A model generated the notes under the pieces. That model was given only the letters and a program-made list of their open reading frames with translations, was not told where the DNA came from and made no database searches. 64,000 nt of DNA, from the NCBI RefSeq assembly GCF_044324875.1, contig NZ_CP172185.1; one strand, written 5' to 3'. The position numbers and the translations under genes are program-made. This DNA comes from Escherichia coli. Its GTDB lineage: Bacteria; Pseudomonadota; Gammaproteobacteria; Enterobacterales; Enterobacteriaceae. Position 1 is the stretch's first letter, and each line of letters begins with the position of its first letter. This document shows, one piece after another, positions 1 through 54,780 of this stretch.

Positions 1-807
1 GAAGGTGATGGCCATTATGATGGCGTAGACAAGGTAGTTTTGACCACCACTGAACTGGCTTTCAACGAACTCACGACCAGCACTGATCGCCATGATCAGA
101 TAAATCACCATCATCGTAAGAGAAATAGAGATGGAACTGTCGCGCAGGAAGCTCAGATTTTTGGGCAAATTCATCTCTTCGGTGGAGCGGGAACCTTTAC
201 CGCACACGCTGCCAATCCAGCCAGAAAGTACATATCCCAGAGTGCCAAAGTGACCAAAAGCAATGTCATCATTCCCCGTAATACGCTTCATATAGCGTTG
301 TGCTAATGCCGGGAAAAATGCCATCACAAGTCCCAGAATAAGAGAACCGGTAAAGACCAGTGATATACCTTCAAAACCAGCCACTGTCAGAATCACACCA
401 ATCATGCAGGCCATGTAAAATGTGTGGTGTCCGGTCAGGAAGATATATTTAAGGCGGGTAAAGCGGGCAACAATAATATTCGCCACCATACCAAATGCCA
501 TAATAAGGGCCGTCGATGCGCCATATTTTTCCAGCGCAATAGAAACAATAGCCTCATTATTCGGAATGATGCCCTGAATATTAAAGGCATGTTCAAACAT
601 ACTCCCAAGAGGATTTAACGAACCAACCAAAACAGTGGCACCACCGCCCAGTACAATAAAGCCGAGAATAGTTTTAATTGTACCTTTAACAACATCTGAA
701 AAAGATTTTTTCTGGGCAACCAGACCAATTAAGGCAATCAAGCCGACCAGTATCGCGGGCACTTTAAGTATATCAACAACAAAATTCAGCGTTTCAAGGA
801 TAAACAT
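1..807 (-). CDS. PTS ascorbate-family EIIC permease (UlaA/SgaT-like), 5' part only; gene continues past window start
   Basis: Manual reverse-strand translation from ATG at 807-805 gives MFILETLNFVVDILKVPAILVGLIALIGLV..., membrane protein resembling UlaA N-terminus; GAGGTGG SD upstream; gene lacks a Met-started complete ORF in the window. Confidence 0.7.
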   Translation of the reverse strand, partial: MFILETLNFVVDILKVPAILVGLIALIGLVAQKKSFSDVVKGTIKTILGFIVLGGGATVLVGSLNPLGSMFEHAFNIQGIIPNNEAIVSIALEKYGASTALIMAFGMVANIIVARFTRLKYIFLTGHHTFYMACMIGVILTVAGFEGISLVFTGSLILGLVMAFFPALAQRYMKRITGNDDIAFGHFGTLGYVLSGWIGSVCGKGSRSTEEMNLPKNLSFLRDSSISISLTMMVIYLIMAISAGREFVESQFSGGQNYLVYAIIMAITF

Positions 808-829
808 ATCCACCTCGCTTCAATTAAGG

Positions 830-1102
830 TTATTGTTTTGCTAACCAGTTACGCAGTTGCGTTTCGAGTTCATTAATATCAATGATGTTGTTGATAACCA
901 CCAACTGACTTTCCGGTACGCTGGCACTGGCAGCAATATCTTTGGCCATCACAAATAAATCGGCAGCCCCTGGCGTTGCTGATGAGAGATCGGAATGTTC
1001 CACTTCCGCCTCTATATCCATTTTTTTCAGAACTTTTTTAATATTCATTTCGACCATAAAACTACTACCAAGCCCTGAGCCACAAATAGCCATAATTTTC
1101 AT
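830..1102 (-). CDS. PTS EIIB component (UlaB/SgaB-like)
   Basis: ORF 830..1150; MKIMAICGSGLGSS matches the EIIB phospho-cysteine loop; start trimmed to the MKIMA codon. Confidence 0.7.
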   Translation of the reverse strand: MKIMAICGSGLGSSFMVEMNIKKVLKKMDIEAEVEHSDLSSATPGAADLFVMAKDIAASASVPESQLVVINNIIDINELETQLRNWLAKQ

Positions 1103-1180
1103 TATATTCACCATTTTAAGTTGAAGAAGTCCCATCACGCAACGGCGCAATGTTGTGAAAAGACTGAATTTATAATGTAA

Positions 1181-1630
1181 TCAGAACCGTGAAATTATCT
1201 TTTTTATTTCCTCCACATTGCGAGCCTGATGCAATTCATGTAAATCTTTTTCGCTGGAGAATAACTCAGCCAGTGCAGATATCATTTCGATATGACTGTG
1301 TTTGTCTGGTGCGGCAAGTAAAATGATAACATCTACAGGATCAAATTCCTCTGTATGAAAACTGACACCTTCTTCAAGTTTTAATAATGATAAACCTAAT
1401 CCTTTTGCCCCTTCTTCTGGTCGGGCATGCGGCATGGCCAGCCCGGGTGCCAGGACATAATAAGGCCCCAGTTTTTCATGTTGTGTCTTTATCGCACTGA
1501 GATAATCCGTCGTAATTATCTCTGCATCCAGTAACGGTCTGGCACAGATATCTAATGCCTGCTGCCAGGTTGCGGCATTCTTTCGTAATGCGATTGTTGA
1601 ATCAGAAAGCCAGATATTAAGCACTCCCAC
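1181..1630 (-). CDS. PTS EIIA component (UlaC/SgaA-like)
   Basis: ORF track 149 aa with GPYYVLAPGLAMPHARPEEG motif typical of ascorbate-type EIIA; apparent GTG start. Confidence 0.7.
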   Translation of the reverse strand: MGVLNIWLSDSTIALRKNAATWQQALDICARPLLDAEIITTDYLSAIKTQHEKLGPYYVLAPGLAMPHARPEEGAKGLGLSLLKLEEGVSFHTEEFDPVDVIILLAAPDKHSHIEMISALAELFSSEKDLHELHQARNVEEIKKIISRF

Positions 1631-1881
1631 CCCCTAATTTCTTATTTATATGACCAGAATGTATTCAAGTAACGACGGTATATCTGCGATCAATATCACA
1701 AAGATAGCGCTATCAGGAGGTATTGTTCGAATTTGTGATAGCGCTATCAAAATAGATTTCACTGATTAAATCCAGACTTATGGCAGATATTAAGAGGTAT
1801 ACTCTGCTACTGGCAGTGCAGGAAGCCGTTGATGATAAGTAATAAAAGATCTCCATATGTAGTCGCTGAGCAGGATTTTGT

Positions 1882-2901
1882 ATGGCAATAACCCGAAAAC
1901 GTCGTAGTACAGGTAAAGTCACTATTGCTGATGTCGCGCAACTCGCGGGAGTTGGCACAATGACTGTATCCAGAGCGTTACGCACTCCCGAACAAGTTTC
2001 AGATAAATTGAGGGAGAAGATTGAAGCCGCAGTTAATGAATTAGGGTATATGCCCAACCTCACTGCAAGCGCACTGGCATCGGCATCTTCACACACGATC
2101 GCAATGGTCGTGCCAAACCTGGCTGAAGCGGGATGCACGGAAATGTTTGCCGGGCTGCAACATGTGCTACAACCAGCGGGGTATCAAATAATCCTGGCTG
2201 AGTCACGCCATCGTCTGGAACAAGAAGAAAAACTGCTGGAAACCCTGCTGGCTTCTAATATCGCTGCAGCAATTTTGCTTAGTGTTGAGCATAATAGTAC
2301 CGTGCGTCACTTGCTCAAAAATGCCTCGATTCCTGTTATAGAAATCGGTGCCATTCGTACTGATCCGATAGATATCAACATTGGTATTGATAATGTTGCA
2401 GCAATGTTCGAGCTGACGGATATGCTGGTACAACGTGGTTATCAGAATATCGGTTTGCTATGCGCTAACCAGGAACAGTGGATCTTTCAGCAGCATTTAC
2501 AGGGATGGTATAAAGCTATGTTACGCCATCATATGTCTCCCAACCGTGTTATTAACGCTGCTCTGCCACCTGTTTTTTCCACCGGAGCATCACAACTACC
2601 GGAATTTTTGCTCGCATGGCCGGAACTGGATGCCCTGGTATGTGTGTCAGATGAGTTAGCCTGCGGTGTTCTCTATGAATGTCAACGAAGACGGATCAAA
2701 GTTCCAGACGAGCTCGCCGTAGTAGGATTTGGTGACAGTGACGTCAGCAAAGTTTGCCAACCATCATTAACAACAATGGCCGTTCCTCACAGGAAAATTG
2801 GTCTGGAAGCAGGAAATGTTTTGCTGGAACGAATTAAAGAAGGTAACTGGAGCAATCAGATATTCATTGAGCCCTGTTTATGTTTACGTGAAAGCTGCTG
2901 A
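1882..2901 (+). CDS. LacI/GalR-family transcriptional regulator
   Basis: 339 aa; N-terminal HTH VTIADVAQLAGVGTMTVSRAL, periplasmic-binding-like C-terminal domain; divergent from the PTS genes. Confidence 0.85.
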   Translation: MAITRKRRSTGKVTIADVAQLAGVGTMTVSRALRTPEQVSDKLREKIEAAVNELGYMPNLTASALASASSHTIAMVVPNLAEAGCTEMFAGLQHVLQPAGYQIILAESRHRLEQEEKLLETLLASNIAAAILLSVEHNSTVRHLLKNASIPVIEIGAIRTDPIDINIGIDNVAAMFELTDMLVQRGYQNIGLLCANQEQWIFQQHLQGWYKAMLRHHMSPNRVINAALPPVFSTGASQLPEFLLAWPELDALVCVSDELACGVLYECQRRRIKVPDELAVVGFGDSDVSKVCQPSLTTMAVPHRKIGLEAGNVLLERIKEGNWSNQIFIEPCLCLRESC

Positions 2902-3702
2902 AGCTGGGGGACTGGTATCTTTCAGCTCACTGATTTTGTTGCTGAACCTGATATATCCTTCGGTTTTCCACAACCAGGGGAAGGGTGTCATCATAAGGCG
3001 TGATGACACCCTGAATTCCCATCCTGTATCTGCAGAAAATTTTTCGTAAATAAATTAATTTAATAACTAAAAAGAAAATACAATAAGCAAAATATCAATT
3101 ACAGCATGTTCGTTTGTTTAAAGAACCTGCTGGTCCTGCCATTAATATTACCTGCTGATTGCTTCACATCCGGATTCCTCGCACTGCGCGCGGGTTATTG
3201 TTTCGTTTTCGGCCACGGGGTCGCCAGGGCTCTGTTTGCAGGCCATGATGGCCTGACCTGTACTGTTTCTCAGGCACTGAGATGTCCGTTTACGCCATTT
3301 GTTCCCGGATATCCTTAACCTCTGACGTTTGTTCCCTGCCCCTCTGTCTGATAACGAATACGCTCACAACGCACAGTACTGAACAATACCGACAACAACA
3401 TGTCTTACATGAAATTCGCTGTAACATCCACCGGAAAACATTTTCAGATATCGGATGAGGTACTACTTCCATTGACAGCGCGAGGTAACAAAATTGATGG
3501 TAACTCTGACCATTAACCGTAAACCGCAGGGTATTTTCAGTAAATCACCGGCAACGCCGCTGCAGGATAAAACGGACACAGCATACAAAATGAAGGCCGG
3601 TGACCAGATACCACAGTTGAACGATAAACAGAAACCTGCTGATAAAACACCGTGGCGACATGACAAAACGCCAGAGCAAAAACCGTAAGCGCATTATTCG
3701 TC

Positions 3703-4005
3703 TTGTGGAACTCTGGCCTGAGTCATTCAACCGGGAAAAAAACAAAACCACTTAAAGTGGGGATACCTGACGACCTGATACAGGATATCGCCATCCGAGA
3801 ACTGGCGTTTGGCGCTGGTACATTACATGCAGCAGTGGCGTCTTATGTGCAGTCTCCGTGCTATTACCGTGCGTTAATAGCAGGTGGCGCCCGTTACAAC
3901 CTGAACGGTCAGCCGTGCGGGGAAGTGACACCACAGGAACAGAAAGAGGCAGAGACCCGTTTAATGATGCTGAATGACCGACGAAAAGACAGAAAACCTC
4001 GTTGA
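3703..4005 (+). CDS. FinO/ProQ-like RNA-binding domain protein (possibly frameshifted with upstream ORF 3494..3688)
   Basis: KPLKVGIPDDLIQDIA...YNLNGQPCGEVTPQEQKEAETRL resembles the ProQ N-terminal FinO domain (RPLKIGIFQDL...DLDGNPCGELDEQ); track start is TTG. Confidence 0.4.
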   Translation: MWNSGLSHSTGKKTKPLKVGIPDDLIQDIAIRELAFGAGTLHAAVASYVQSPCYYRALIAGGARYNLNGQPCGEVTPQEQKEAETRLMMLNDRRKDRKPR

Positions 4006-4022
4006 CTGCACAACAGCGCTGT

Positions 4023-4619
4023 TCACTGAGCTGTAATCAATGTACAGCGCTGTACCGGGCGATGGGTAATACCGGTCACAACCGGTAACCCCAGAGACAA
4101 TGCAACTGTTTTTAACGCAATATACTGGCCGGATGTATCACCCCGGGCAGCCTGAAAACACCTTTCCACCCGGCATTGTCCGTCAGCACTTATCACCCGC
4201 CATGTCTGTTGCAATAAATCCACCCGTTGCGAACATTCTTCATCAACCGTGGCACTGACCCGTGGATGGCAAATGCTCGTCTGGCTGAGCAGCAACAGGC
4301 ATCGCATTGTTGCTCCTCCATGTTGTTCCCGCAACCAGCGTAATACCACCGGTGGTGCTGGACTGGCCGTGTGATTACGTTCAGTAATACGCTCGTGCAC
4401 CTGTCGGTAAAAGGAAGTACAGAATGCATGAATCTGTTGTCCGTTGATGTTTCCTTCTGCCGAATGGAGCGTGAAGTGAAATGCCAACAGATTTGGCCAG
4501 TGGTCCACCGCCTGCTGAACAAAACGCCGGATTTCCCCCGGCGCTGAAAGTAAGGCTTCGGTTATTTGCACTATTTTATCCCCGTTGAATTTTGTTAAGC
4601 CGGTGCAGACCAGACACAC
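4023..4619 (-). CDS. Inovirus Gp2-family (YagK/YfjJ-like) protein, paralog 1
   Basis: 198 aa; same overall architecture as the two downstream paralogs (LAFHFTLH ... MRCLLLLSQT). Confidence 0.45.
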   Translation of the reverse strand: MCLVCTGLTKFNGDKIVQITEALLSAPGEIRRFVQQAVDHWPNLLAFHFTLHSAEGNINGQQIHAFCTSFYRQVHERITERNHTASPAPPVVLRWLREQHGGATMRCLLLLSQTSICHPRVSATVDEECSQRVDLLQQTWRVISADGQCRVERCFQAARGDTSGQYIALKTVALSLGLPVVTGITHRPVQRCTLITAQ

Positions 4620-4848
4620 GGAAAGCGCACATCGACACCGGCACGGTACGATACAAACACCAGTGACTGGCGGGACGAAGGGAATGACGAATCAGTCAGG
4701 AAATGATGACAAACAGTTGGCTGGCCAGAGGGTGCCAGCAGAAAGATGAGCGGGAGTTGTCAGCGCCAGCACCAGGGACAGGGCTGATTTCCACAATACC
4801 AGCGCCGGCATTTCGCACATTGCCAGCGTACTGGCATTACAACACGTT

Positions 4849-5085
4849 TCATGCTGCTGCTCCTCGTGATTCCTCAATTCGCTGCTGCATCCACTGCTCC
4901 ACTTCACTTTTGTACCAGCGGCTGCTGCGCCCCAGTTTGATGGGTTTAGGGAAATGGCCTTCACTGATCAGCTTGTAAAACCATTTGTCGGTCATACCAG
5001 TGAAGCTGGTGATGTAGTTCATGTCGATCAGGGGATCGTCGGCACGCAGCAATACGCTGTCGTGACCTGTCATTGAGGTCAACAT
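4849..5085 (-). CDS. alpA: AlpA-family phage/island transcriptional regulator
   Basis: 78 aa; MNYITSFTGMTDKWFYKLISEGHFPKPIKLGRSSRWYKSEVEQWM is the AlpA HTH signature. Confidence 0.8.
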   Translation of the reverse strand: MLTSMTGHDSVLLRADDPLIDMNYITSFTGMTDKWFYKLISEGHFPKPIKLGRSSRWYKSEVEQWMQQRIEESRGAAA

Positions 5086-5153
5086 GGTCAGAATGTCCTC
5101 TGTGAGATTTATGAATGTTGGGCAAATGCGGGTGAATCTGCTGAGCTGAGCTT

Positions 5154-5756
5154 TCAGAGCTGGCCTGCTACGGGATACCAGGGATTACCGGCGAGGTAAC
5201 GGGCTTCCGGATCGCGCACACCACGACGATCGCGGGCGAAATCACTGAACGCCCATATCAGCTCTTTGAGTCTCTCTTCGCAGTCCGGTGAACAACTGTC
5301 CAGCACCACATCCCGGGTTATCTGTTTCTGGTACGGTGCTGCTTCACCCGGTGACGCGAAGCCCAGTACGTTGCTCCAGGCATCCAGAATCAACCGGTCC
5401 AGCTCAGGGCCGTCGAAATATTCCTGTCTGACGCACAGCACCACGTGGTATTCCGGTTTTTCAGGATGACGGGTCAGGAGCCAGCAGAGGTCGCGTCCGG
5501 GGGTTGCATTCATCAGCGCACTGACGGTTTCGATAAAGGCCATACCGAACCAGGTTTTTCTGTCGCTGAAGATGTTGCCATGTTCCCCCGGCAGACGAAG
5601 CAGGATCCGCCGTATCCTGGAGCCGGACTGCTCGCGCAACACACGGTTGAGAACGCCGATGATTTTGTTCTGATAAGATGGCCAGAAGGGCGCCATGCTA
5701 TAGTCGAAATAAGGGATAGCATTCATAAGATATGTTCCGTTATACGCAGCCCACAA
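5154..5756 (-). CDS. Inovirus Gp2-family (YfjI/YagK-like) protein, paralog 2
   Basis: 200 aa; island backbone position immediately after alpA. Confidence 0.55.
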   Translation of the reverse strand: MWAAYNGTYLMNAIPYFDYSMAPFWPSYQNKIIGVLNRVLREQSGSRIRRILLRLPGEHGNIFSDRKTWFGMAFIETVSALMNATPGRDLCWLLTRHPEKPEYHVVLCVRQEYFDGPELDRLILDAWSNVLGFASPGEAAPYQKQITRDVVLDSCSPDCEERLKELIWAFSDFARDRRGVRDPEARYLAGNPWYPVAGQL

Positions 5757-6082
5757 CGCGTCCTGCCCGTGGATGCGCTGACGTGTTATGGCTTGCGTAT
5801 GGGGTTGATGGAATAAGTGAAAAACCGCGGCAGAACGGGAAGATCAGGTAACCGACAAGGGACAGAACACCGGATGCAGGTTCAGAATGAATGATCTCCG
5901 TTGACTTCGGTTCACATCATTAAGCAGGACAGTAAGGTTTTACCGACGGAGTGTTTCCAGGAGCGAAAGCAGAGAAAAATACCGTTGCATGACTTCAGGA
6001 CGACTTTTTCAGAAAACGAGCTAAGGGCGTCAGCCAACGTCCTGTAGCATAAGCTCAGGCACCGGATGTCGTTTTACAGGGC

Positions 6083-6814
6083 TCACCTGCCATCCAGCAG
6101 ACGCCCCGGCCCACGACTGCAACCATAATTACGTTGCCCGGAACCGTCATGCTGCTTCGTCTCATATTTCACGAGATAACTGGCTCTGTTCCGGGCTTTC
6201 TGCAGCGCTTCCACATCACCACGCTTGATCCAGAGAACAGCGGCTTCACCCGGCTTTTTTTCTGAAGCCTTCCTGGTATCAGAACATCCACCCGACAAAG
6301 GCGTGTCATCGGAAGAAGGGCGAGCATCAGACGATGCTGGTTTACGGGAAGGCGTCCACCTGGAAAAATGGACCAGGCCATCGCCTTGCCAGGCCTCAAG
6401 ATGCAGGGCGCTGCACCATGCCTCCAGGATCATCGTCGCCAGCGAAGATGGTTCGCTGAAATCCCCTGGCGAGCACCAGGTATCTTTGTTGAGCAGCAAT
6501 ATCACGTGATAATGTTTCCTGCCTTTTTCCTTGCCAAACTCCCGACACCAGAAATAACGCAGAGTGGTTGCACGCACACGCTTGTTGGCACGTCGTTTTT
6601 TCCGCTGGTAAGCCTGGATTTTGGCTTTCAGGGATTCGAAAAAACGAGAAATCACCGCTGAATCCGGATCGGGATCCATGATGGTGACAGGCATATACTC
6701 AGGGAAACGTAAATCCACCCGGATTAACGAGACGGCACGGTGCTGCGACAGGGCACTGTCGAGAAGGCTGTCAAAACGGGATAACCAGTAAGCATTGTGT
6801 ATTGGTTGATTCAT
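6083..6814 (-). CDS. Inovirus Gp2-family (YfjJ/YagK-like) protein, paralog 3
   Basis: 243 aa; LIRVDLRFPEY ... HYHVILLLNKD pattern. Confidence 0.6.
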   Translation of the reverse strand: MNQPIHNAYWLSRFDSLLDSALSQHRAVSLIRVDLRFPEYMPVTIMDPDPDSAVISRFFESLKAKIQAYQRKKRRANKRVRATTLRYFWCREFGKEKGRKHYHVILLLNKDTWCSPGDFSEPSSLATMILEAWCSALHLEAWQGDGLVHFSRWTPSRKPASSDARPSSDDTPLSGGCSDTRKASEKKPGEAAVLWIKRGDVEALQKARNRASYLVKYETKQHDGSGQRNYGCSRGPGRLLDGR

Positions 6815-6849
6815 GATGAGAGATCTCCGTTGATTTGGATTGACTTCAC

Positions 6850-8390
6850 ATCATTAATCACCGCGGTAAAACTTTACGGCATCATGTCATTAAGCAATGC
6901 TACAACTCTCTGATTAAGAGTGATTGAAACGGAACAAACCATCCCGGAACGAAAAGATAATCCTGCACACAGCAGCAAAACACGCAACAACAGCATGAAT
7001 GGATTTAAAAACGACATGGACGACGAGAAAAGCCTGAAGGGAAAAGGATCCACAGAACATTCGAACAAAACACCAGAAACGCAACCAGAACGCTTCCTGG
7101 CAATGCAAATCAACAACAACGCCAAAACCTACAGCTTAATCACACAACTCAATCACGAATGCGAATGACACGTTTAAAACCTGTTTACAGATAACGCCGT
7201 AACACGATCATCCCCATCACCATCAGAATCGATTTTCTCATCCCGAAAATGTTACGTTTCACTACGCACCATAAAAACGATTAACCATCGATAACGTAAA
7301 TCTCATCTGAATCAAAAAACCAAAACCAATCATCACACTTTCGCAATGCAAGAAGAAAAACCACATCATGACGAAAACAATGACCTTACATGAAAAAGCA
7401 AAACGTCAGGAATCGTTAATGCCTCAATCTGATTGTTATCAAAACATCCAGAAAGTCGTTTAACAGAATCGTCGTAAGCACATCGAAAAGAACGTCAGAT
7501 CACCTCAGGAAAGTTCGGGTTGATTTAGCGTAAAGATACTTTTCTCAGCTTAACGTCGAAACACAAACCAAAAACCACAAACAACCAAAGCTCAGGAAAG
7601 GTTAAACGTCACATCAGTAAAATCGAATAGCAGATTGATTGCTTAAACAGGAAAGATTGTTTTACAGCAGCATTAAACTGATTTAGTTAACGTAAAATCA
7701 GAACTGACAGGTTTACTAACTTGGATGTGTATCAGTTCAAAAATGTGTACAGCAATGCGTAATGAAACACATTTAAAGGAGATTAATGGGAAAAGTGTGT
7801 AAATGCGTAAACATGCACTAATGAATCACTGAAGGAATACATACAAAACGACTTAATGAAAACATAAAAGGACCTAATGGAAAAGGTGTATATAATACCA
7901 TATCCGACATTCTCAACATCTTAAGACATCCATGCAGACTGAATGTTGGTTTCAGTTTTTCACGGTAAGCATGAATCTTTTCTGTTCAAAAGCAGAGCAG
8001 ATTTACTCTGGAATTATTTTTCTTACTCCGTATTCTGTACAGCAAAAACTTGTGCTAACTTTACAGCAAACCATCATAATCAGCGTCTGTAGTCCCATCG
8101 CTTTACCCCATGAAAGTGAATCCATATGATGTGAGAGAGATAAGTCATCGTATCCGGTAAACACTGCTTACTATAACATAAGATCATTCAGTCAGTTTTA
8201 TCTCTGAACTGACGATTATGGCATGCTCATTTATATGGCTCACAGAGGAGTGTTATTATCCGTAAGCTTTAATCATCAAATCACATGACCATACCAAACT
8301 GGCGCTATATCAGCTCATTTGACGCTCATTCCCTTTAGATTTCTTTATGTGTTTTTTGTCGATAATTAAAATGTAATATAAATTTAATAT
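6850..8390. other. About 1.5 kb ORF-poor, strand-skewed (A+C-rich top strand) intergenic region with recurrent short motifs
   Basis: No ORF of 60 aa or more on either strand between about 7170 and 7930; recurring AACGT(C/A)A..ATC, TCAGGAAAG and TAATGRA motifs. Confidence 0.6.
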
Positions 8391-8397
8391 TTTCACA

Positions 8398-9621
8398 TCA
8401 TAAACACCATTTAAAACCATCATCCTGAACATCATACAACAATATATTTTTACTAAAGCATGAATTGTATATTTCTATTAATTCAGGAAAATTATCAGGA
8501 TTCACCTTTAAATTCAACTGAATGTTACACTTAATTTCACTCAGCAGTTCTTCATGCGTGGATTTTATTATCCCTTTATCATAATCTATAAATACACACA
8601 TGTTTTTCATGAATTCAAACCCTTTTCCTGTATACAGTTTGATGAATGCCACAAGAGCAAACATTTCAAGATGCAGCCATAATGCCACGTGAGTTTTTCG
8701 CAAAGTATAAAAAATTGAATTCGCCACTTTTTTACTTATTGCTCTTTTGTACTGTGAGTGCGCCAGATTCAGTAGTGGCAATTCTCTCTCGATAAATGAA
8801 AGTGAAAAAGGCGGGTAAATTGATGTCGGAAATATTTCAGGTCTTATGATATTTTCGATTTCCACCATAAATCTATCCATAGAACGAAAATCATTTTCTT
8901 TTTTTATTCTGGTATAGAGACCGCCTTTATTCCTTACTGCGACTTTTTTTCGTGCTATCCCCCCCAACATTTCCTCTAATTGTTTATTTATCTTCGTATC
9001 ATTAAATACAACCATTCTTCTTATCATCCTGGGAAGGATGATAATATCAGAGCTTGAATCACTTGAACGGCAATTATTATTGATCCATGCAACTTCAAGT
9101 TGAAGTATCGGAACATTAAATTCTCTGGGGTTAATAACTCTCTGATATTGTTTTTTGTATGCGTTTTCATTAAGATATTCTCTGCTGTAGAGAAACTTAT
9201 AGCAATATAATCTGACAATATCCTTTATGTAAGATTTAAATGAGTCACCTGTAACAGATATATTTTTTCTTCTCAGTAACTCCTGTGTATTGAGCCATTC
9301 CCGTGACCGGAGTACTCCATTATGAAGACTTTTTCTTACTTGCTTTGAATTGCGCAATTGATGTAATATTTTTGCGTCCTCAACAATTCTCTTTCCCGTT
9401 TGATTTCTTGCAGCATCTATTACTCTGTCAAATATCTCCCGGTCCAGACTTTTGTCATATTTACTGATTATACGACAAATATTCCTGACCCGACGGTTCT
9501 CTTTATTTCGTTTCCATAACTGATAATGATCATCACATAACCTCAGGGCATTTGCCTCATCAAATTCTGAAACAGGATTGCTGCATTTTTTATTCCGACA
9601 GATACCTTTGTTTTTAGCCAT
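8398..9621 (-). CDS. Hypothetical protein, 407 aa, low-GC orphan
   Basis: Long ATG-initiated ORF with purine-rich SD; Lys/Arg/Asn-rich; N-terminal Cys-x4-Cys ... Cys-x2-His; no family recognised. Confidence 0.6.
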   Translation of the reverse strand: MAKNKGICRNKKCSNPVSEFDEANALRLCDDHYQLWKRNKENRRVRNICRIISKYDKSLDREIFDRVIDAARNQTGKRIVEDAKILHQLRNSKQVRKSLHNGVLRSREWLNTQELLRRKNISVTGDSFKSYIKDIVRLYCYKFLYSREYLNENAYKKQYQRVINPREFNVPILQLEVAWINNNCRSSDSSSDIIILPRMIRRMVVFNDTKINKQLEEMLGGIARKKVAVRNKGGLYTRIKKENDFRSMDRFMVEIENIIRPEIFPTSIYPPFSLSFIERELPLLNLAHSQYKRAISKKVANSIFYTLRKTHVALWLHLEMFALVAFIKLYTGKGFEFMKNMCVFIDYDKGIIKSTHEELLSEIKCNIQLNLKVNPDNFPELIEIYNSCFSKNILLYDVQDDGFKWCL

Positions 9622-9721
9622 ACTCTTCTTCCCGTCAATGGAAAAATTTTCACGTCCATATTACCTGACTGAGAGGCCGGATTAATGTGATCCGGTTCAG
9701 TGAAATCAACAGGATAACGGT

Positions 9722-10606
9722 ATGTCATTCAGCCATTCTTCCCTCTCCGCACACGTAAAGTCACATCTGACCTTTCTTCCTGAAGAAATTCGCCAGAAAA
9801 TCCTTGAACATCTTCGCAGCGTCATTCAGTACGAACCCGTTATTGGCATTATGGGTAAATCCGGTGCCGGAAAAAGCAGCCTGTGCAATGCCATTTTTCA
9901 GTCCCGTGTCTGCGCCACGCATCCGCTGAACGGCTGCACCCGTCAGGCTCATCGTCTTACCTTTCAGCCCGGTGAACGAAGAATGACGCTGGTCGATCTG
10001 CCCGGCACTGGCGAAACACCACAGCATGATCAGGAATACCGGGCACTTTACAGTCAGTTACTGCCCGAACTGGATCTGATTATCTGGATCCTGCGGGCTG
10101 ATGAACGTGCGTATGCTGCCGACATCGCCATGCATCAGTTTTTACTGAATGAAGGTGCCGATCCCTCGCGTTTTCTGTTTGTTCTCAGCCATGCCGATCG
10201 CATCCACCCGGCTGAAGAATGGAACAACCAGAGCAGCACGCCATCCCGTCAGCAGGAACTCTCACTGGCGACGGTGACAGCCCGGGTGGCAACCCTGTTC
10301 CCTTCATCATTTCCGGTACTCCCCATAGCCGCTCCTGCCGGCTGGAATCTTCCGGCATTTGTGTCTCTGATGATCCACGCCCTGCCACCACAGGCAACCA
10401 GCGCGGTTTATTCGCATATCCGGAATGAAAAGCGCACTGCGCAGGATCAGCAACACGCACAGCAGGCTTTTGGTGACGCCATCGGCCAGAGTTTTGACGC
10501 TGCCATTGCCCGGTTCAGCTTTCCGGCCTGGATGCTGCAGCTTCTGCGCAAAGCCCGTGATCGCATTATCCGCCTGCTGATCACACTGTGGGATCGCCTG
10601 TTCTGA
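9722..10606 (+). CDS. YeeP/YfjP-family GTPase (50S ribosome-binding GTPase-like)
   Basis: 294 aa; P-loop GIMGKSGAGKSS and DLPGTGE switch motif. Confidence 0.85.
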   Translation: MSFSHSSLSAHVKSHLTFLPEEIRQKILEHLRSVIQYEPVIGIMGKSGAGKSSLCNAIFQSRVCATHPLNGCTRQAHRLTFQPGERRMTLVDLPGTGETPQHDQEYRALYSQLLPELDLIIWILRADERAYAADIAMHQFLLNEGADPSRFLFVLSHADRIHPAEEWNNQSSTPSRQQELSLATVTARVATLFPSSFPVLPIAAPAGWNLPAFVSLMIHALPPQATSAVYSHIRNEKRTAQDQQHAQQAFGDAIGQSFDAAIARFSFPAWMLQLLRKARDRIIRLLITLWDRLF

Positions 10607-10791
10607 ATGTCCCCGCTTTTTGACCGGCCCCGGCGATAACCAGGAAACGCATTTCCGGTTGCGTCACCACAATGCTGAAGGGCTTCGGTAAACCCTCATT
10701 CATTTCATCCATCAGGCCGCGTCTTCTCCGTGAGACGCGGCTTTTTCATTGATTACGTCATTCAGTCTTAACCACTGATAAGGAGCAAAGT

Positions 10792-11610
10792 ATGCGATTA
10801 GCCAGTCGTTTTGGTTATGCGAACCAGATACGCCGTGACCGTCCGCTGACCCGTGAAGAGCTGATGCACCATGTGCCCGGGATTTTCGGGGAAGATAAAC
10901 ACACCTCCCGGAGCCGGAACTATACATACATCCCCACCATCACCGTGCTGGAAAGCCTGCAGCGGGAAGGCTTTCAGCCATTCTTCGCCTGCCAGACCCG
11001 CGTACGTGACCCGGGTCGCCGGGGGTATACCAAACACATGCTGCGTCTGCGCCGTGACGGGGAGATAAACGGACAACATGTCCCTGAAATTATTCTGCTC
11101 AACTCTCATGACGGTACCTCCAGCTACCAGATGCTGCCGGGTTACTTCAGGTTCGTCTGCCAGAACGGATGCGTCTGCGGTCAGTCTCGGGGGGAAGTGC
11201 GTGTTCCGCACCGGGGAAATGTGGTGGACAGAGTCATTGAAGGGGCTTACGAGGTGGTGGGCGTGTTTGACCGGATAGAGGAGAAGCGTGATGCCATGCA
11301 GTCGCTGGTCCTGCCGCCACCGGCACGCCAGGCGCTGGCACAGGCGGCACTGACTTACCGTTATGGTGACGAACATCAGCCCGTCACCACCGCCGACATT
11401 CTGACACCACGACGCCGGGAGGATTACGGTAAGGACCTGTGGAGTGCTTATCAGACCATCCAGGAGAATATGCTGAAAGGCGGGATTTCCGGTCGCAGTG
11501 CAAAAGGAAAACGTATCCATACCCGGGCCATTCACAGCATTGATACCGATATAAAACTCAACCGCGCATTGTGGGTGATGGCAGAAACGCTGCTGGAGAG
11601 CATGCGCTGA
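10792..11610 (+). CDS. DUF932-family protein (YfjQ/YafZ-like)
   Basis: 272 aa; position after the GTPase gene as in CP4-type islands. Confidence 0.7.
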   Translation: MRLASRFGYANQIRRDRPLTREELMHHVPGIFGEDKHTSRSRNYTYIPTITVLESLQREGFQPFFACQTRVRDPGRRGYTKHMLRLRRDGEINGQHVPEIILLNSHDGTSSYQMLPGYFRFVCQNGCVCGQSRGEVRVPHRGNVVDRVIEGAYEVVGVFDRIEEKRDAMQSLVLPPPARQALAQAALTYRYGDEHQPVTTADILTPRRREDYGKDLWSAYQTIQENMLKGGISGRSAKGKRIHTRAIHSIDTDIKLNRALWVMAETLLESMR

Positions 11611-11691
11611 TGCCGTTTCCCTGAGTGAGGGAATCATTCAGCTTTCGTTCCTGAAAAACACACATTTATTTGTTATTTAAGGCGTTATCTC

Positions 11692-12171
11692 ATGAAAACC
11701 GTTTCTCAGAATACCCCCACAATTTATTCAGCTACAACACCAGAGAATAATCCGCCTCAGTTGGTTGCCAGCCTCGTCCCTGATGAACAGCGCATCAGCT
11801 TCTGGCCGCAGCATTTTGGCCTCATTCCACAGTGGGTGACCCTGGAGCCCCGTGTCTTCGGCTGGATGGACCGTCTGTGCGAAGACTACTGCGGTGGTAT
11901 CTGGAATCTGTACACCCTGAACAACGGCGGGGCATTTATGGCCCCCGAACCGGATGATGATGATGACGAAACATGGGTACTGTTCAATGCCATGAACGGT
12001 AACCGCGCTGAAATGAGCCCGGAAGCCGCCGGCATTGCCGCCTGTCTGATGACGTACAGTCATCACGCCTGCCGTACGGAGTGTTATGCCATGACGGTTC
12101 ATTATTACCGTCTGCGGGATTACGCCCTGCAGCATCCGGAATGCAGCGCCATTATGCGCATCATTGACTGA
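11692..12171 (+). CDS. Antirestriction protein, KlcA/ArdB family (YfjX/YafX-like)
   Basis: 159 aa; acidic DDDDDE stretch, conserved island order. Confidence 0.75.
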   Translation: MKTVSQNTPTIYSATTPENNPPQLVASLVPDEQRISFWPQHFGLIPQWVTLEPRVFGWMDRLCEDYCGGIWNLYTLNNGGAFMAPEPDDDDDETWVLFNAMNGNRAEMSPEAAGIAACLMTYSHHACRTECYAMTVHYYRLRDYALQHPECSAIMRIID

Positions 12172-12186
12172 AAGGGGGCCGGAACA

Positions 12187-12663
12187 ATGCAACAGATTTC
12201 CTTTCTGCCCGGAGAAATGACAACCAGAGAGCGCAGCCTCATTCAGCGGGCCCTGAAAGCCCTGGACCGCCATCTTCATGAACCCGGCGTGGCCTTCACC
12301 TCCACGCATGCGGCACGGGAATGGCTGATTCTGAACATGGCGGGACTGGAGCGTGAAGAATTCCGGGTGCTGTATCTGAATAACCAGAATCAGCTGATTG
12401 CCGGTGAAACCCTCTTCACCGGCACCATCAACCGCACGGAAGTCCATCCCCGGGAAGTGATTAAACGCGCCCTGTACCACAATGCCGCTGCCGTGGTGCT
12501 GGCGCACAATCACCCGTCCGGTGAAGTCACACCCAGCAAGGCAGACCGCCTTATCACGGAACGTCTGGTACAGGCGCTGGCCCTGGTGGATATCCGGGTG
12601 CCGGACCATCTGATAGTCGGTGGCAGCCAGGTTTTCTCCTTTGCCGAACATGGTCTGCTTTAA
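12187..12663 (+). CDS. RadC-like JAB-domain protein (YeeS/YfjY-like)
   Basis: 158 aa; JAMM-like HNHPSGEVTPSKAD motif. Confidence 0.85.
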   Translation: MQQISFLPGEMTTRERSLIQRALKALDRHLHEPGVAFTSTHAAREWLILNMAGLEREEFRVLYLNNQNQLIAGETLFTGTINRTEVHPREVIKRALYHNAAAVVLAHNHPSGEVTPSKADRLITERLVQALALVDIRVPDHLIVGGSQVFSFAEHGLL

Positions 12664-12725
12664 CCCGTCACAACCACATCACACCTGTTTTCACTTTTAT
12701 CTTCTGTCTTCAGAGGTATCCCATT

Positions 12726-12947
12726 ATGAAAATCATCACCCGTGGTGAAGCCATGCGTATTCACCAACAGCATCCTGCATCCCGTCTTTTTCCGTTCTGT
12801 ACCGGCAAATACCGCTGGCACGGCAGCACTGAAACGTATACCGGTCGTGAAGTGCAGGATATTCCCGGTGTGCTGGCTGTGTTTGCAGAACGTCGTAAGG
12901 ACAGTTTTGGCCCGTATGTCCGGCTGATGAGCGTCACCCTGAACTGA
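12726..12947 (+). CDS. YeeT-family (DUF987) small protein
   Basis: 73 aa, MKIITRGEAMRIHQQHP...; position before the antitoxin gene. Confidence 0.75.
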   Translation: MKIITRGEAMRIHQQHPASRLFPFCTGKYRWHGSTETYTGREVQDIPGVLAVFAERRKDSFGPYVRLMSVTLN

Positions 12948-12961
12948 GTCAGGGCATTCTG

Positions 12962-13594
12962 ATGAGCAGAATTATCACCATCACAGTGTATACGCTGGAT
13001 GAACTTTCCTGCCCGGCACGGGAAAAAGCCCGCGACGGGTACCGTCAGCATCATGCTGACAGCAACTGGTATGAAAACGTGTATGAGGACGTCAGGGAGG
13101 TCTGTGGCATTTTCGGAATTGACCTCTGCCAGCGTGTTATCCGTCTCAGCAACGGCAGGTTTATGGAAGAGCCGTGCATCTGGTTCAGCGGATTCTGCAG
13201 CCAGGGACGGAGCCTGTTTTGAAGGACGCTGGCACTGGCAGTCAGCAACAACCAGGAGAGTCCGGGAGTATGCCCCGCAGAACCGTGAGCTTCATCGTAT
13301 CGCGGATGCCCTGCAGGCGGTGCAGAAACGTAACTTCTGGCAACTGCAGGCTGAAATCCACCACCGGGGACGTTACTGCCATCCGTTATCACTGTTACCC
13401 GGAACAGTCCGACTGGTCAGGCTATGACAGCCGATGCGGAAGCCGCTGTCAGCGAAGCCCTGCGCGACCTGGCCTTCTGGCTGTACCGTCAACTGGAAAA
13501 CGAGTACGACCAGATGACCTCAGACGCCGCTGTGGATGAGGCCATTCTCATCAATGCATACATCTTCACCGAAACCGGTCAGCGCACCGGCTGA
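12962..13594 (+). pseudogene. Apparently disrupted gene: protein-like segments in three reading-frame pieces (12962-13222, about 13200-13427, 13424-13594)
   Basis: All three segments translate to plausible protein sequence but are separated by frame changes; the last piece (57 aa) is below the ORF-track threshold. Confidence 0.35.
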
Positions 13595-13643
13595 CCTGTC
13601 ATCGTTAAACCATTCTTAACCACTTTTCAGAGAGGATTTTATC

Positions 13644-14012
13644 GTGTCAGACACACTCTCCGGGATAACTCATCCCGACGACAATCACGACCGCCCCTGG
13701 TGGGGGCTTCCCTGCACAGTGAGGCCCTGTTTTGGCGCCCGTCTGGTGCAGGAGGGTAACCGCCTGCATTACCTTGCCGACCGCGCCGGCATCAGAGGCC
13801 GGTTCAGCGATGCGGATGCATACCATCTGGACCAGGCCTTTCCGCTGCTGATGAAACAACTGGAACTCATGCTCACCAGCGGTGAACTGAATCCCCGCCA
13901 TCAGCATACCGTGACACTGTATGCGAAGGGGCTGACCTGCGAAGCCGACACCCTCGGCAGTTGTGGTTACGTTTATCTGGCTGTTTATCCGACGCCCGAA
14001 ACGAAAAAGTAA
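13644..14012 (+). CDS. Type IV antitoxin, CbeA/YeeU/YfjZ family
   Basis: 122 aa, near-identical to recalled YeeU (MSDTL.G.T.PDDNHDRPWWGLPCTV...TPETKK). Confidence 0.9.
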   Translation: MSDTLSGITHPDDNHDRPWWGLPCTVRPCFGARLVQEGNRLHYLADRAGIRGRFSDADAYHLDQAFPLLMKQLELMLTSGELNPRHQHTVTLYAKGLTCEADTLGSCGYVYLAVYPTPETKK

Positions 14013-14102
14013 ACCACCGGAATAACCTTCTGCTCCGGCCAGGTGTTTTCACCACGCCACTCTCCCCATAATTTAATCTCTCATATCAGGAAAATCTTCA
14101 GT

Positions 14103-14513
14103 ATGAAATTATTACCCGACACACATGTACGGGAGGCATCGTGCTGCCCGTCTCCCGTCACCATCTGGCAGACACTGCTCATCCGTCTGCTGGACCAGCA
14201 CTATGGCCTCACACTGAATGACACACCGTTCGCTGATGAACGTGTGATTGAGCAGCATATTGAGGCCGGCATTTCACTGTGCGATGCGGTGAACTTTCTC
14301 GTTGAAAAATACGCACTGGTACGTACCGACCAGCCGGGATTCAGCGCAGGAGCCCCGTCGCAGTTAATCAACAGCATCGATATTCTCCGGGCCCGCCGGG
14401 CAACAGGCCTGATGACACGTAATAACTACAGAATGGTAAATAACATTACCCTGGGTAGCATCCGGGGGCGAAACGATGAAACTTTCCCTGACGCTGGAAG
14501 CCGACAGCATTAA
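14103..14513 (+). CDS. Type IV toxin, CbtA/YeeV/YpjF family
   Basis: Start trimmed to MKLLPDT; [67 protein letters not shown] matches YeeV. Confidence 0.85.
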
Positions 14514-14898
14514 CGTGCAGGCACTGAACATGGGGCGCATTGTCGTTGACATTGATGGTGTAAATCTCGCTGAACTGATTAACAAGGTCGCTGAATACGG
14601 TTATTCACTCCGCGTGGTGGATGAACGTGACGCTACCGAAACACCGGCGACTTCTGCCAGCTCTCATCAGTTGCCGGAAGACAATACAGTGATACAGAGC
14701 GTGATGCCATTAACCACTGAAACAGCGCTGGATATCCTCATTGCGTGGCTGCAGGACAATATCGACTGCGGGTCCGGAATTATTTTCGACAACGATGAGG
14801 ATAAAACGGATTCGGCAGCACTGCTGCCCTGTATTGAACAGGCCAGGGAGGATATCCGTACCCTGCACCAACTGCAACTTCTGCACCAGAACCGGTGA
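14476..14898 (+). CDS. YeeW-like protein
   Basis: 140 aa; overlaps the 3' end of the toxin gene, as yeeW follows yeeV in CP4-44. Confidence 0.55.
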
Positions 14899-14982
14899 AT
14901 CTCACTCACCAGACTTCATTCTCCTGACGCCAGCCTGAACAGAGCTGGCGTTTTCGTTTATAAACAGAAAGGAAACCCCATA

Positions 14983-15768
14983 ATGTCATATATCACAATC
15001 CCCCACCCGAACGCGGTCAACGGACATACAGCCGTTATCTGTTCCACAAGTATCAGACACATCCTGGCTGTACGAAAGAGTACACTGCTGCAAATCGACA
15101 CGCTTATCCGGCAACTGACAGAAATCTCAGCACTGACGGAAAGTATTGGCGGTAAAGCCGCCCCGGACTGGGCCATGAAACAGGATTTTCGCTGTGGCTG
15201 CTGGCTGAAGGAGAAACAGGAAACCGCAATGAAAGCCATTACCCGGAATCTTGACCGCGAAATCTGGCGTAACCTGATGCAGCGTTCCGGGATGCTTTCC
15301 TTAATGGATGCACAGGCACGTGATACATGGTACAGGTCACTGGAATATGATAATTTTCCGGAAATCAGTGAAGCGAACATTCTGAGCACATTTGAACAAC
15401 TGCACCAGAATAAGGATGAAGTGTTTGAGCGGGGGGTGATCAACCTCTTCAAAGGGCTGAGCTGGGATTACAAAACCAACTCACCCTGTAAATTTGGCAG
15501 TAAAATTATCGTCAACAATCTGGTGAGGTGGGACCAGTGGGGATTTCATCTTATCAGTGGAATGCAGGCAGATCGCCTGGCTGACCTGGAAAGAATGTTG
15601 CATCTGCTCAGCGGTAAACCGATCCCCGACAACCGGGGAATATCACCATTAATCTGGATGACCACATACAGTCCGTTCAGGGTAAAGGACGCTATGAAGA
15701 TGAGATGTTCATCATTAAATACTTTAAGAAGGGAGCTGCACACATCACTTTCAAAAGGCTGGAGCTGA
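14983..15768 (+). CDS. Hypothetical protein, last gene of the island (possibly DUF4942-like)
   Basis: 261 aa ATG-initiated ORF; family assignment from memory is tentative. Confidence 0.5.
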   Translation: MSYITIPHPNAVNGHTAVICSTSIRHILAVRKSTLLQIDTLIRQLTEISALTESIGGKAAPDWAMKQDFRCGCWLKEKQETAMKAITRNLDREIWRNLMQRSGMLSLMDAQARDTWYRSLEYDNFPEISEANILSTFEQLHQNKDEVFERGVINLFKGLSWDYKTNSPCKFGSKIIVNNLVRWDQWGFHLISGMQADRLADLERMLHLLSGKPIPDNRGISPLIWMTTYSPFRVKDAMKMRCSSLNTLRRELHTSLSKGWS

Positions 15769-15935
15769 TTGACAGAATTAACGATATAATAGCCAGGCAC
15801 TTTCCTTCTGTGCTCTCAGCCTGACCCCGAGTTTGATTCCCTTTCGATATCAAAAGGGACTGCGGGTACAAAAGAGGGTACATCTTTCACCAAACCAAAC
15901 AAAATAAACCAATATCAACACGATAGAAGCATTCT

Positions 15936-15957
15936 TCGATTCCGAGTCCGGCACCAA
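15936..15957 (+). repeat. 3' fragment of tRNA-Phe (pheU attachment-site remnant)
   Basis: TTCGATTCCGAGTCCGGCACCA matches the pheU 3' end (one G fewer); upstream sequence does not match the rest of the tRNA. Confidence 0.7.
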
Positions 15958-15967
15958 ATTCATATAA

Positions 15968-15993
15968 ACGGACCTCCACGGAGGTCCGTTTTT
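15968..15993 (+). terminator. Rho-independent terminator (native pheU terminator)
   Basis: CGGACCTCC-AC-GGAGGTCCG stem followed by TTTTT. Confidence 0.6.
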
Positions 15994-16572
15994 CGTTTCA
16001 GGACGCCACAATTTAAGCGTTCTGCCTAAAAATCATTTCTACCGAACTCAACCAGATTCTCCCCACATCACCAGCAATTTGCGGGCATATCCCAATTCGG
16101 GGAAATGTGTTCCTGAGCTATAGCACTGACTGACGTGAAATGTCGTGCGGCCCCGTGATGCTGTTGAACGTCAAATGACGTCATCAGGAGCGTAACGCAT
16201 CCATAAAGCACAACATCGGGCAGAACGCCGACTGATGAGATTTTCTGAATGAGAACAAAGAGAAATGTATCAGTCCGCTTGCTCATGCAAAGACTAACAA
16301 TCCATAAAAATAGTAAGCGCTCCGGGCAATTTTCCATGGATTATTTTCTGAACATTTTTCTTTGGCAAAGATGATGAATTTTGATGGTAAGGAATATTAC
16401 TTCTGGTTCTCAGTAAAATCCTTTCGTAATACTATGTGATCAAGAAGTTTATGGCTGGTAAAAATAACGTCTTGCATTCACCAATAATATGTAAATAAAC
16501 CCATCTATAGATGGTAAAAATAGGTTGTGGCAATTATCATTGCATCATTCCCTTTTCGAATGAGTTTCTATT

Positions 16573-18111
16573 ATGCAACAACCTGTAGTTCGCGTTGGCG
16601 AATGGCTTGTTACTCCGTCCATAAACCAAATTAGCCGCAATGGGCGTCAACTTACCCTTGAGCCGAGATTAATCGATCTTCTGGTTTTCTTTGCTCAACA
16701 CAGTGGCGAAGTACTTAGCAGGGATGAACTTATCGATAATGTCTGGAAGAGAAGTATTGTCACCAATCACGTTGTGACGCAGAGTATCTCAGAACTACGT
16801 AAGTCATTAAAAGATAATGATGAAGATAGTCCTGTCTATATCGCTACTGTACCAAAGCGCGGCTATAAATTAATGGTGCCGGTTATCTGGTACAGCGAAG
16901 AAGAGGGAGAGGAAATAATGCTATCTTCGCCTCCCCCTATACCAGAGGCGGTTCCTGACACAGATTCTCCCTCCCACAGTCTTAACATTCAAAACACCGC
17001 AACACCACCTGAACAATCCCCTGTTAAAAGCAAACGATTCACTACCTTTTGGGTATGGTTTTTTTTCCTGTTGTCGTTAGGTATCTGTGTAGCACTGGTA
17101 GCGTTTTCAAGTCTTGATACACGTCTTCCGATGAGCAAATCGCGTATTTTGCTCAATCCACGCGATATTGACATTAATATGGTAAATAAAAGTTGTAACA
17201 GCTGGAGTTCCCCGTATCAGCTCTCTTACGCGATAGGCGTGGGTGATTTGGTGGCGACATCACTTAACACCTTCTCCACCTTTATGGTGCATGACAAAAT
17301 CAACTACAACATTGATGAACCGAGCAGTTCCGGTAAAACATTATCTATTGCGTTTGTTAATCAGCGCCAATACCGTGCTCAACAATGCTTTATGTCGGTA
17401 AAATTGGTAGACAATGCAGATGGTTCAACCATGCTGGATAAACGTTATGTCATCACTAACGGTAATCAGCTGGCGATTCAAAATGATTTACTCCAGAGTT
17501 TATCAAAAGCGTTAAACCAACCGTGGCCACAACGAATGCAGGAGATGCTCCAGCAAATTTTGCCTCATCGTGGTGCGTTATTAACTAATTTTTATCAGGC
17601 TCATGATTATTTACTGCATGGCGATGATAAATCATTGAACCGTGCCAGTGAATTACTAGGTGAGATTGTTCAATCATCCCCCGAATTTACCTACGCGAGA
17701 GCAGAAAAAGCATTAGTTGATATCGTGCGCCATTCTCAACATCCTTTGGATGAAAAACAATTAGCAGCACTGAACACAGAAATAAATAACATTGTTACAC
17801 TACCGGAATTGAATAACCTGTCCATTATATATCAAATAAAAGCGGTCAGTGCTCTGGTAAAAGGTAAAACAGATGAGTCTTACCAGGCGATAAATACTGG
17901 CATTGATCTTGAAATGTCCTGGCTAAATTATGTGTTGCTTGGCAAGGTTTATGAAATGAAGGGGATGAACCGGGAAGCAGCTGATGCATATCTCACCGCC
18001 TTTAATTTACGCCCAGGGGCAAACACCCTTTACTGGATTGAAAATGGTATATTCCAGACTTCTGTTCCTTATGTTGTACCTTATCTCGACAAATTTCTCG
18101 CTTCAGAATAA
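16573..18111 (+). CDS. cadC: CadC, membrane-bound ToxR-like activator of cadBA
   Basis: 512 aa, matches E. coli CadC. Confidence 0.95.
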   Translation: MQQPVVRVGEWLVTPSINQISRNGRQLTLEPRLIDLLVFFAQHSGEVLSRDELIDNVWKRSIVTNHVVTQSISELRKSLKDNDEDSPVYIATVPKRGYKLMVPVIWYSEEEGEEIMLSSPPPIPEAVPDTDSPSHSLNIQNTATPPEQSPVKSKRFTTFWVWFFFLLSLGICVALVAFSSLDTRLPMSKSRILLNPRDIDINMVNKSCNSWSSPYQLSYAIGVGDLVATSLNTFSTFMVHDKINYNIDEPSSSGKTLSIAFVNQRQYRAQQCFMSVKLVDNADGSTMLDKRYVITNGNQLAIQNDLLQSLSKALNQPWPQRMQEMLQQILPHRGALLTNFYQAHDYLLHGDDKSLNRASELLGEIVQSSPEFTYARAEKALVDIVRHSQHPLDEKQLAALNTEINNIVTLPELNNLSIIYQIKAVSALVKGKTDESYQAINTGIDLEMSWLNYVLLGKVYEMKGMNREAADAYLTAFNLRPGANTLYWIENGIFQTSVPYVVPYLDKFLASE

Positions 18112-46328: not shown

Positions 46329-46393
46329 AGAAAGCTGCTGACCACCAGCACGCTGAACACGGTAGTTAAACTTTCATAAACACGGTTTTTCAT
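46304..46393 (-). CDS. pmrR: PmrR, 29-aa membrane peptide; not in ORF track
   Basis: Manual translation MKNRVYESLTTVFSVLVVSSFLYIWFATY; 3' end overlaps the basS 3' end convergently. Confidence 0.8.
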   Translation of the reverse strand: MKNRVYESLTTVFSVLVVSSFLYIWFATY

Positions 46394-46504
46394 TGCACTC
46401 TCCTCCGTTAACCTGGAGGAGAGTATGCGCGTCAGAGATTAAGTGAACCTTAAGACTTCAATTGGCCTGATAAGACAGCGTCACATCAGGCCATCCGTTT
46501 CAGC

Positions 46505-52114: not shown

Positions 52115-52210
52115 TATTGTGATCGGTAAGCCGGATAAGGCGCTCGCGCCGCATCCGGCAACGATGCCGACAGCCTGATGCGACGCTGACCGCGTCTTAT
52201 CAGGCTTCCC
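52115..52210. repeat. REP/BIME-type extragenic palindromic element
   Basis: GCCGGATAAGGCGC...GCATCCGGCA and GCCTGATGCGACGCTG...CTTATCAGGC motifs. Confidence 0.6.
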
Positions 52211-54679: not shown

Positions 54680-54780
54680 GTAAGTCGGATAAGACGCCAC
54701 GGCGTCGCATCCGACAATGTGCAGACGTTGATGCCGGATGCGGTGCAAGCACCTTATCCGGCCTACAGACCGGAGCCAAA
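54680..54780. repeat. REP element between phnD and phnE
   Basis: GTCGGATAAGACGCC...GCGTCGCATCCGACA and GCCGGATGCGGTGCAAGCACCTTATCCGGCCTAC. Confidence 0.6.

Follow-up and report, generated by a model that had tools for sequence, protein, structure and literature searches.

The general model for islands integrated into tRNA genes, as set out in the work on Islander (PMC4383910), which cites Williams 2002 for it, has the target tRNA gene regenerated at one end of the island and a displaced 3′ fragment of it at the other, with crossover at subsites in the anticodon loop, the T loop or the T/acceptor junction, where the identity block has its 5′ limit; tandem arrays of such islands occur. For the Escherichia coli tRNA-Phe gene pheV, a 2024 study in PLoS Genetics (PMC11537424) lists in its Table 1, for many of the islands termed GI-pheV, a ‘23-bp imperfect attR’ with the sequence TTCGATTCCGAGTCCGG-CACCA; intP4 alleles and yee modules are also dealt with there, as is cargo that includes tia, pap and ireA. 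Direct repeats of 22 bp, with a one-base shift relative to K-12, have been described at both pheU and pheV, together with pheU insertions in LEE-negative STEC (PMC6174562), and a review (PMC7545054) has a table of PAI-pheU islands in CFT073, S88, CE10 and ED1a. Is the junction dealt with here of the same kind? It is an ordinary, previously described feature, and counts as known because the same imperfect attR has been published for pheV and pheU islands. The only additions are the provenance of its 22-nt tRNA-like repeat, the crossover position which that implies, and a probable island origin for the pheU terminator.

The DNA analysed, here called the window, is a stretch of 64,000 nt from E. 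coli. The features at and beside the junction are as follows.

1–15934, no strand assigned: right-hand 15.9 kb of a pheU island, from annotation transferred from GF4 and PKF11 and from family matches
15935–15956, plus strand: putative attR core, TTCGATTCCGAGTCCGGCACCA, the same string as the published ‘23-bp imperfect attR’
15966–15993, plus strand: predicted intrinsic terminator hairpin with an 11-bp stem, a CACG loop and T5
16573–18111, plus strand: cadC, nearest core-genome gene on the right side of the junction

E. coli tRNA-Phe ends in the 23 nt TTCGATTCCGAGTCCGGGCACCA. On alignment to the empty pheU site of strain N3, the stretch at 15935–15956 is these same 23 nt with one G absent from the GGG run, the match being made up of 17 exact nt plus CACCA. 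The original prediction had a 22-nt match to the tRNA-Phe 3′ end at 15936–15957; the match is present, but it starts 1 base further to the left, and the single-G deletion had been overlooked. The 22-mer occurs once in the 64-kb window even with up to 3 mismatches allowed, and chance similarity to tRNA-Phe was ruled out as an explanation, 0 matches being expected from 100 shuffles. That the remainder of the tRNA is missing upstream, as was also predicted, is borne out in three ways: the DNA 5′ of the 22-mer shows no similarity to the tRNA body in the alignment to the N3 empty site, ARAGORN found no complete tRNA cloverleaf in the whole 64-kb window, and the Rfam tRNA search gave none either at gathering threshold or at a permissive E ≤ 10, the permissive run around the junction returning noise only. 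Elsewhere, in the core-genome part of the window, there are Rfam gathering-level matches for the sRNA STnc630 and two naRNA4 (REP-derived), the positions being 46297–46462 (minus strand), 52129–52206 (plus strand) and 54683–54763 (minus strand).

A terminator hairpin was expected after the match and about 580 bp before cadC, and that is where it lies, the cadC ATG at 16573 being 580 nt after 15993. Its stem-loop covers 15966–15991, has 6 G-C pairs in the stem and runs into a T run at 15989–15993; the predicted folding energy is −20.5 kcal/mol with z = −2.9. A G+C-rich hairpin followed by a T run is what would be looked for in a Rho-independent terminator, and the predicted hairpin would stop read-through from the island heading for cadC.

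What does the site look like without the island? Megablast of window 15400–16600 against 5,426 complete E. coli genomes, with query position 536 corresponding to window 15935, gave matches in 5,420 of them, and most of these begin exactly at 15935, within an annotated intact tRNA-Phe. K-12 and N3 have the empty arrangement, dicD-pheU-(integrase pseudogene yjdQ)-cadC. The comparison with K-12 proposed in the original prediction thus comes out as foreseen: intact pheU adjoins this flank, with homology starting at 15935. Alignment of the window and of PKF11 to the empty site holds from TTCGATT on with a gap of a single G, the island DNA of 1–15934 is missing from the empty-site genomes, and the junction point is the very base at which those genomes diverge. 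The occupied state, with the DUF4942 gene of the island end and the junction together, is borne by 880 of the 5,426 genomes.

The other end of the island is outside the window but can be seen in relatives. PKF11 has the same junction at 99.6% identity, G deletion included, and in it yjdC, pheU with its GGG and a 421-aa P4-like integrase are found in that order 50.6 kb to the left of the junction. GPEC172 has the PTS/transketolase module of the window and again the same junction; a walk of 50 kb leftwards there met no pheU, and it is at ~99 kb to the left that pheU plus int are found, the island in that strain being ~99 kb. The order dicD-pheU followed by a full-length integrase is present in 1,311 genomes. 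The complete E. coli genome that matches best is 99.3% identical over 16000–40000 and 97.8% over the island part. Going by these relatives, an intact pheU with an integrase is expected to the left of the window, in the arrangement dicD (yjdC)-pheU (76 nt, GGG)-AATTCATAT-terminator-leader-full-length int.

The island, then, occupies 1–15934 and runs past the left edge of the window. Several marks of an intP4-type island are seen: a 3′-terminal piece of the target tRNA in copy, divergence from the empty site at the repeat, mobility and accessory genes whose composition is unlike that of the core genome, and the published attR string. We hold it very probable that 15935–15956 is the attR core of such an island in the 3′ end of pheU, and that beyond it the flank preserves the left end of an older one as a fossil. 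The central claim of the original prediction, a distal att site of an island integrated into pheU, is upheld by divergence from the empty site to the base and by the relatives with pheU and int. Its boundary at about 15957 holds for the current island, whose specific DNA stops at 15934 and whose repeat stops at 15956, but not for acquired DNA as such, of which an older portion carries on to ~16430, as is dealt with below.

With GI-pheV and intP4 islands (PMC11537424) the likeness extends to the attR string, the CP4-44-like yee right end, the P4-like integrase beside the tRNA and the cargo of relatives, those matching the window carrying tia, pap and ireA. The GI-pheV islands, however, sit at pheV by yghD, whereas the present one is at pheU by cadC, and what follows its repeat appears to be the left end of a relic island and not, as with GI-pheV, a truly native terminator. 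The integration site is shared with PAI-CFT073-pheU (PAI II CFT073), PAI-S88-pheU and PAI-ED1a-pheU, and PAI-CFT073-pheU carries ireA and pap, as do the relatives. In contrast to the virulence cargo of PAI-pheU islands, the cargo visible here is a PTS/transketolase sugar module plus a yee module, and no virulence genes were found within 1–15934.

1–2901, no strand assigned: sugar PTS module with ascorbate-type IIC (cut by the window edge), IIB and IIA, and a divergent LacI/GntR-like (LacI-family) regulator
4849–5085, minus strand: AlpA-like excisionase, by family match
6083–6814, minus strand: Gp2-like protein, by family match
8398–9621, minus strand: low-GC orphan open reading frame of 407 aa, a patch of 34% GC between the Gp2-like and YfjP GTPase genes
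9722–15824, no strand assigned: CP4-44-like ‘yee module’ with YfjP GTPase, DUF932, antirestriction protein, RadC, DUF987, YeeU/CbtA, DUF957 and DUF4942
14983–15824, plus strand: DUF4942-family gene, the last of the island, a pseudogene with a frameshift near 15640

The GC content of the island swings from 0.34 to 0.57, and in relatives transketolase genes sit just to the left of the PTS module. The 407-aa reading frame had no match in Pfam, NCBIfam or PADLOC and is kept as ‘hypothetical protein’ in PKF11 and GF4; variable slots of CP4-like islands are often sites of defence genes. The frameshift in the DUF4942 gene is also annotated in PKF11, and on comparison of three-frame translations the GF4 homologue is intact.

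How the junction came to be in this particular strain is a separate matter. It could have formed once in an ancestor and reached the strain vertically, or through homologous recombination that brought in the island and its core flanks together on one large segment. This we regard as quite possible though somewhat short of probable. The right flank is 99.5% identical to N3 and the junction as close to PKF11 as given above, where most genomes are at ~97%; the islands have a mosaic, modular make-up that includes IS elements and resistance insertions, and recombination within flu and yee modules has been reported (PMC11537424). However, what is at issue there is transmission only, and the nature of the junction is unaffected by it. 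Site-specific integration is still required as the origin, since the same element ends are also present at pheV, beside another flank.

The flank to the right of the repeat had been taken as native, with the hairpin as the native pheU terminator. The identity with K-12 stands, the sequence of 15966–15993 being the same as that after pheU in K-12 and N3, but a near-identical copy is present at the left ends of islands, and it is the term native that does not survive. On comparison with PKF11 and GF4, the DNA from 15957 to ~16430 can be recognised as what remains of an older island’s left end: a terminator, an int leader and an integrase with an internal deletion (yjdQ).

15957–16119, plus strand: relic int leader, from comparison of the block 15935–16089 with the PKF11 pheU-integrase segment at attL
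16120–16313, plus strand: relic P4-like integrase (K-12 yjdQ), from tblastn with the PKF11 integrase, with which the K-12 and PGAP pseudogene annotations concur
16314–16430, plus strand: relic island DNA past the integrase stop, ~117 nt with homology to the PKF11 and GF4 islands

The block 15935–16089, which takes in the terminator and int leader, has 91.7% identity to a stretch of 156 nt at the attL of PKF11, counted from the T loop on. In a 94-kb record of E. coli strain 9, NZ_CP048307.1, there is also a 68-nt piece of the int leader (94171–94238, 92.6% identity), at the very end of the record and under a uvrA annotation. After the leader, 16120–16152 corresponds to codons 1–11 of the integrase, IALTDVKCRAA against MALTDAKIRAA, with the start ATG changed to ATA, and 16154–16313 to codons ~359–421 in shifted frames and with stops, ~1 kb having been lost by internal deletion. 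A full-length integrase reading frame with its catalytic domain is absent from 16120–16313, where there are only codons 1–11 and ~359–421, spread over three frames. The relic DNA ends ~140 nt short of the cadC start codon.

On the terminator and leader, the pheV site is informative. When yqgA-pheV was fused to the attL flank of PKF11 as a chimeric query, 3,043 of the 5,426 genomes matched the whole of it without a break, and the terminator of the empty pheV site of K-12 differs from the island-borne one. With the same terminator and leader module after pheV, unlike what is at the empty pheV of K-12, the module is thus judged island-borne and to replace the tRNA’s own terminator on integration. 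The hairpin at 15966–15993 would accordingly belong to the relic left end, having a 92%-identical twin at attL and also one after pheV, and at attL an element would supply a replacement terminator for the tRNA that it enters. On this comparative evidence, what separates pheU from cadC in every E. coli, K-12 among them, is the decayed left end of an earlier island.

With the flank read as a relic island left end, older acquired DNA continues to ~16430, and the window has a tandem layout of current island and then relic island. GF4 has the same layout of a current and a second island, the integrase of the second being full-length. The tandem-island junction of GF4, at ~32440–32700 of the retrieved segment, has a different right end, ParDE and then GTTTCATTCCGAGTCCGGGCACCA with GGG; after GTTTCATTCCGAGTCCGGGCACCA come the same terminator and leader and then the full-length integrase. 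Tandem arrays, which might have told an element-borne 22-mer from a displaced native end, were sought with a chimeric query in which the yee right end ran into a full-length integrase; its one match was no tandem but a deletion derivative at pheV. K-12 yjdQ (b4654), between pheU and cadC, is orthologous to 16120–16313, with 97% identity over the whole pheU-cadC spacer, and a search of the literature on the name yjdQ found none. What would be added to the existing annotation is that the remnant represents codons 1–11 and ~359–421, and that the terminator and leader upstream are part of the same relic.

Whose copy of the tRNA end is the 22-mer? It had been described as a displaced 3′ end, and that it copies the 3′ end of tRNA-Phe is not in question, but its constancy at pheU, pheV and in other genera points to its being the element’s own. 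The G-deleted form was found at 9 of 9 pheU right ends sampled, though the island-side sequence just upstream varies. Right ends at pheV were sought with a chimeric query of island end, 22-mer and native pheV flank, and the order DUF4942-22-mer-native pheV flank was found in 600 genomes; all 6 of those sampled have the G-deleted 22-mer with the native pheV terminator directly 3′. Identical island-side variants are found at pheU and pheV alike, and the intact tRNAs at attL retain GGG. An exact scan for the 22-mer across other species, with one genome per species, located it in 22 representative genomes, in 21 of the 22 outside an intact tRNA and with species-specific flanks 3′; the genera include Yersinia, Citrobacter, Pantoea, Erwinia, Xenorhabdus, Edwardsiella, Pectobacterium, Sodalis and Marinobacter, with others. 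Because it is constant at pheU and pheV right ends and in other genera, the 22-mer is judged to be probably the element’s own imperfect copy and not a displaced native end.

In the classical alternative the crossover site is the T loop or the T/acceptor junction, a perfect 23-nt copy in attP completes pheU, and the native 22-mer loses its G once it has been displaced. It is the general model for tRNA-integrating islands (PMC4383910), the identity block does start at the T loop, a non-functional fragment may mutate freely, and imperfect repeats have been discussed as stabilising changes (PMC11537424). Nevertheless we think it unlikely. The same G loss would be needed independently at pheU and pheV, for several island-side variants that are present at both, and needed again in ~20 other species beside their own native flanks, and on excision the G deletion would remain in the chromosome, unable to spread with the element.

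For a 22-mer carried by the element, where would strands be exchanged? A crossover 5′ of the G deletion would bar the deletion from travelling with the element, and the exchange is therefore placed beyond the G run, on its 3′ side. We consider it likely that strands are exchanged there and that the leading 17 nt form the element’s P-side arm. Those 17 nt, G missing, would be the P side of attP, and the tRNA at attL would keep its own GGG. With pheV as target the exchange would fall within CACCA, since the identity there ends at CCA, and with pheU as target within CACCAAATTCATAT, since in PKF11 the attL flank first differs from the attR flank at +10. Counting against this placement, the identity available at pheV is only 5–6 nt, which is short for the overlap region of a tyrosine recombinase. 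By relocating the crossover, an element-borne 22-mer would explain an imperfect repeat without damage to the tRNA. The present island, while sharing with the general model an intact tRNA at one end (in relatives), a 3′ fragment at the other and a tandem arrangement, would on the comparative data differ from it in that the fragment is apparently element-borne and the crossover at the extreme 3′ end.

At 8 loci of other genera the G-deleted 3′ end is inside longer tRNA-Phe-like blocks, of ~45–52 nt and starting at the anticodon stem. Among them, those of Yersinia and Erwinia have further single-G losses in a GGGG run, and in that of Pectobacterium two changes in the anticodon stem together preserve its pairing (GAGGA...TCCTC). 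Such features suggest that the longer blocks are att arms long evolving on elements rather than freshly displaced host fragments. A different case is seen in Pantoea sp. IMH, where 1473–1547 is a full-length tRNA-Phe-like gene with a GG deletion, a T-stem mismatch and a native-looking terminator 3′; it could represent a pseudo-tRNA or a full-length att arm, or be due to an error of assembly.

A wider reading can be offered, to which we incline slightly. Across a broad family of elements that target Phe-tRNA genes, in Enterobacterales and at least one Marinobacter, the G-deleted arm would be conserved within attP, with exchange in the last 5–6 nt (discriminator-CCA) and not where the identity block starts on its 5′ side. 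The attR fragment would never have been host DNA, the elements would bring a terminator with them, and the pheU terminator of all E. coli would have been exapted from an ancient integration.

That the 22-mer is instead the stump of a pheU lost by deletion or insertion, at a locus with no functional pheU and no att logic, might be entertained with no tRNA in the window and its left end out of view, but is most improbable when the break point is the same to the base in 880 genomes and agrees with the published attR, when relatives with the same junction keep an intact pheU at the far end, and when pheV islands end in the same 22-mer. A pseudo-tRNA left by deletion was likewise considered and ruled out, the break point being common to the base across loci and genomes.

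For this strain, the right boundary of a pheU island is now fixed, with island-specific DNA to 15934 and the repeat to 15956. Neither the provenance of the repeat nor that of the flank changes the general understanding of tRNA-integrated islands, though there is in the former a small caution with regard to the default view of a far-end tRNA fragment as displaced host DNA. If the crossover position and its breadth in Enterobacterales were confirmed by experiment, this would be a modest mechanistic note. The 475 nt beyond the repeat appear to be of island origin though they are in K-12, and this bears on K-12 as the ‘empty’ reference for the site and on the region upstream of cadC.
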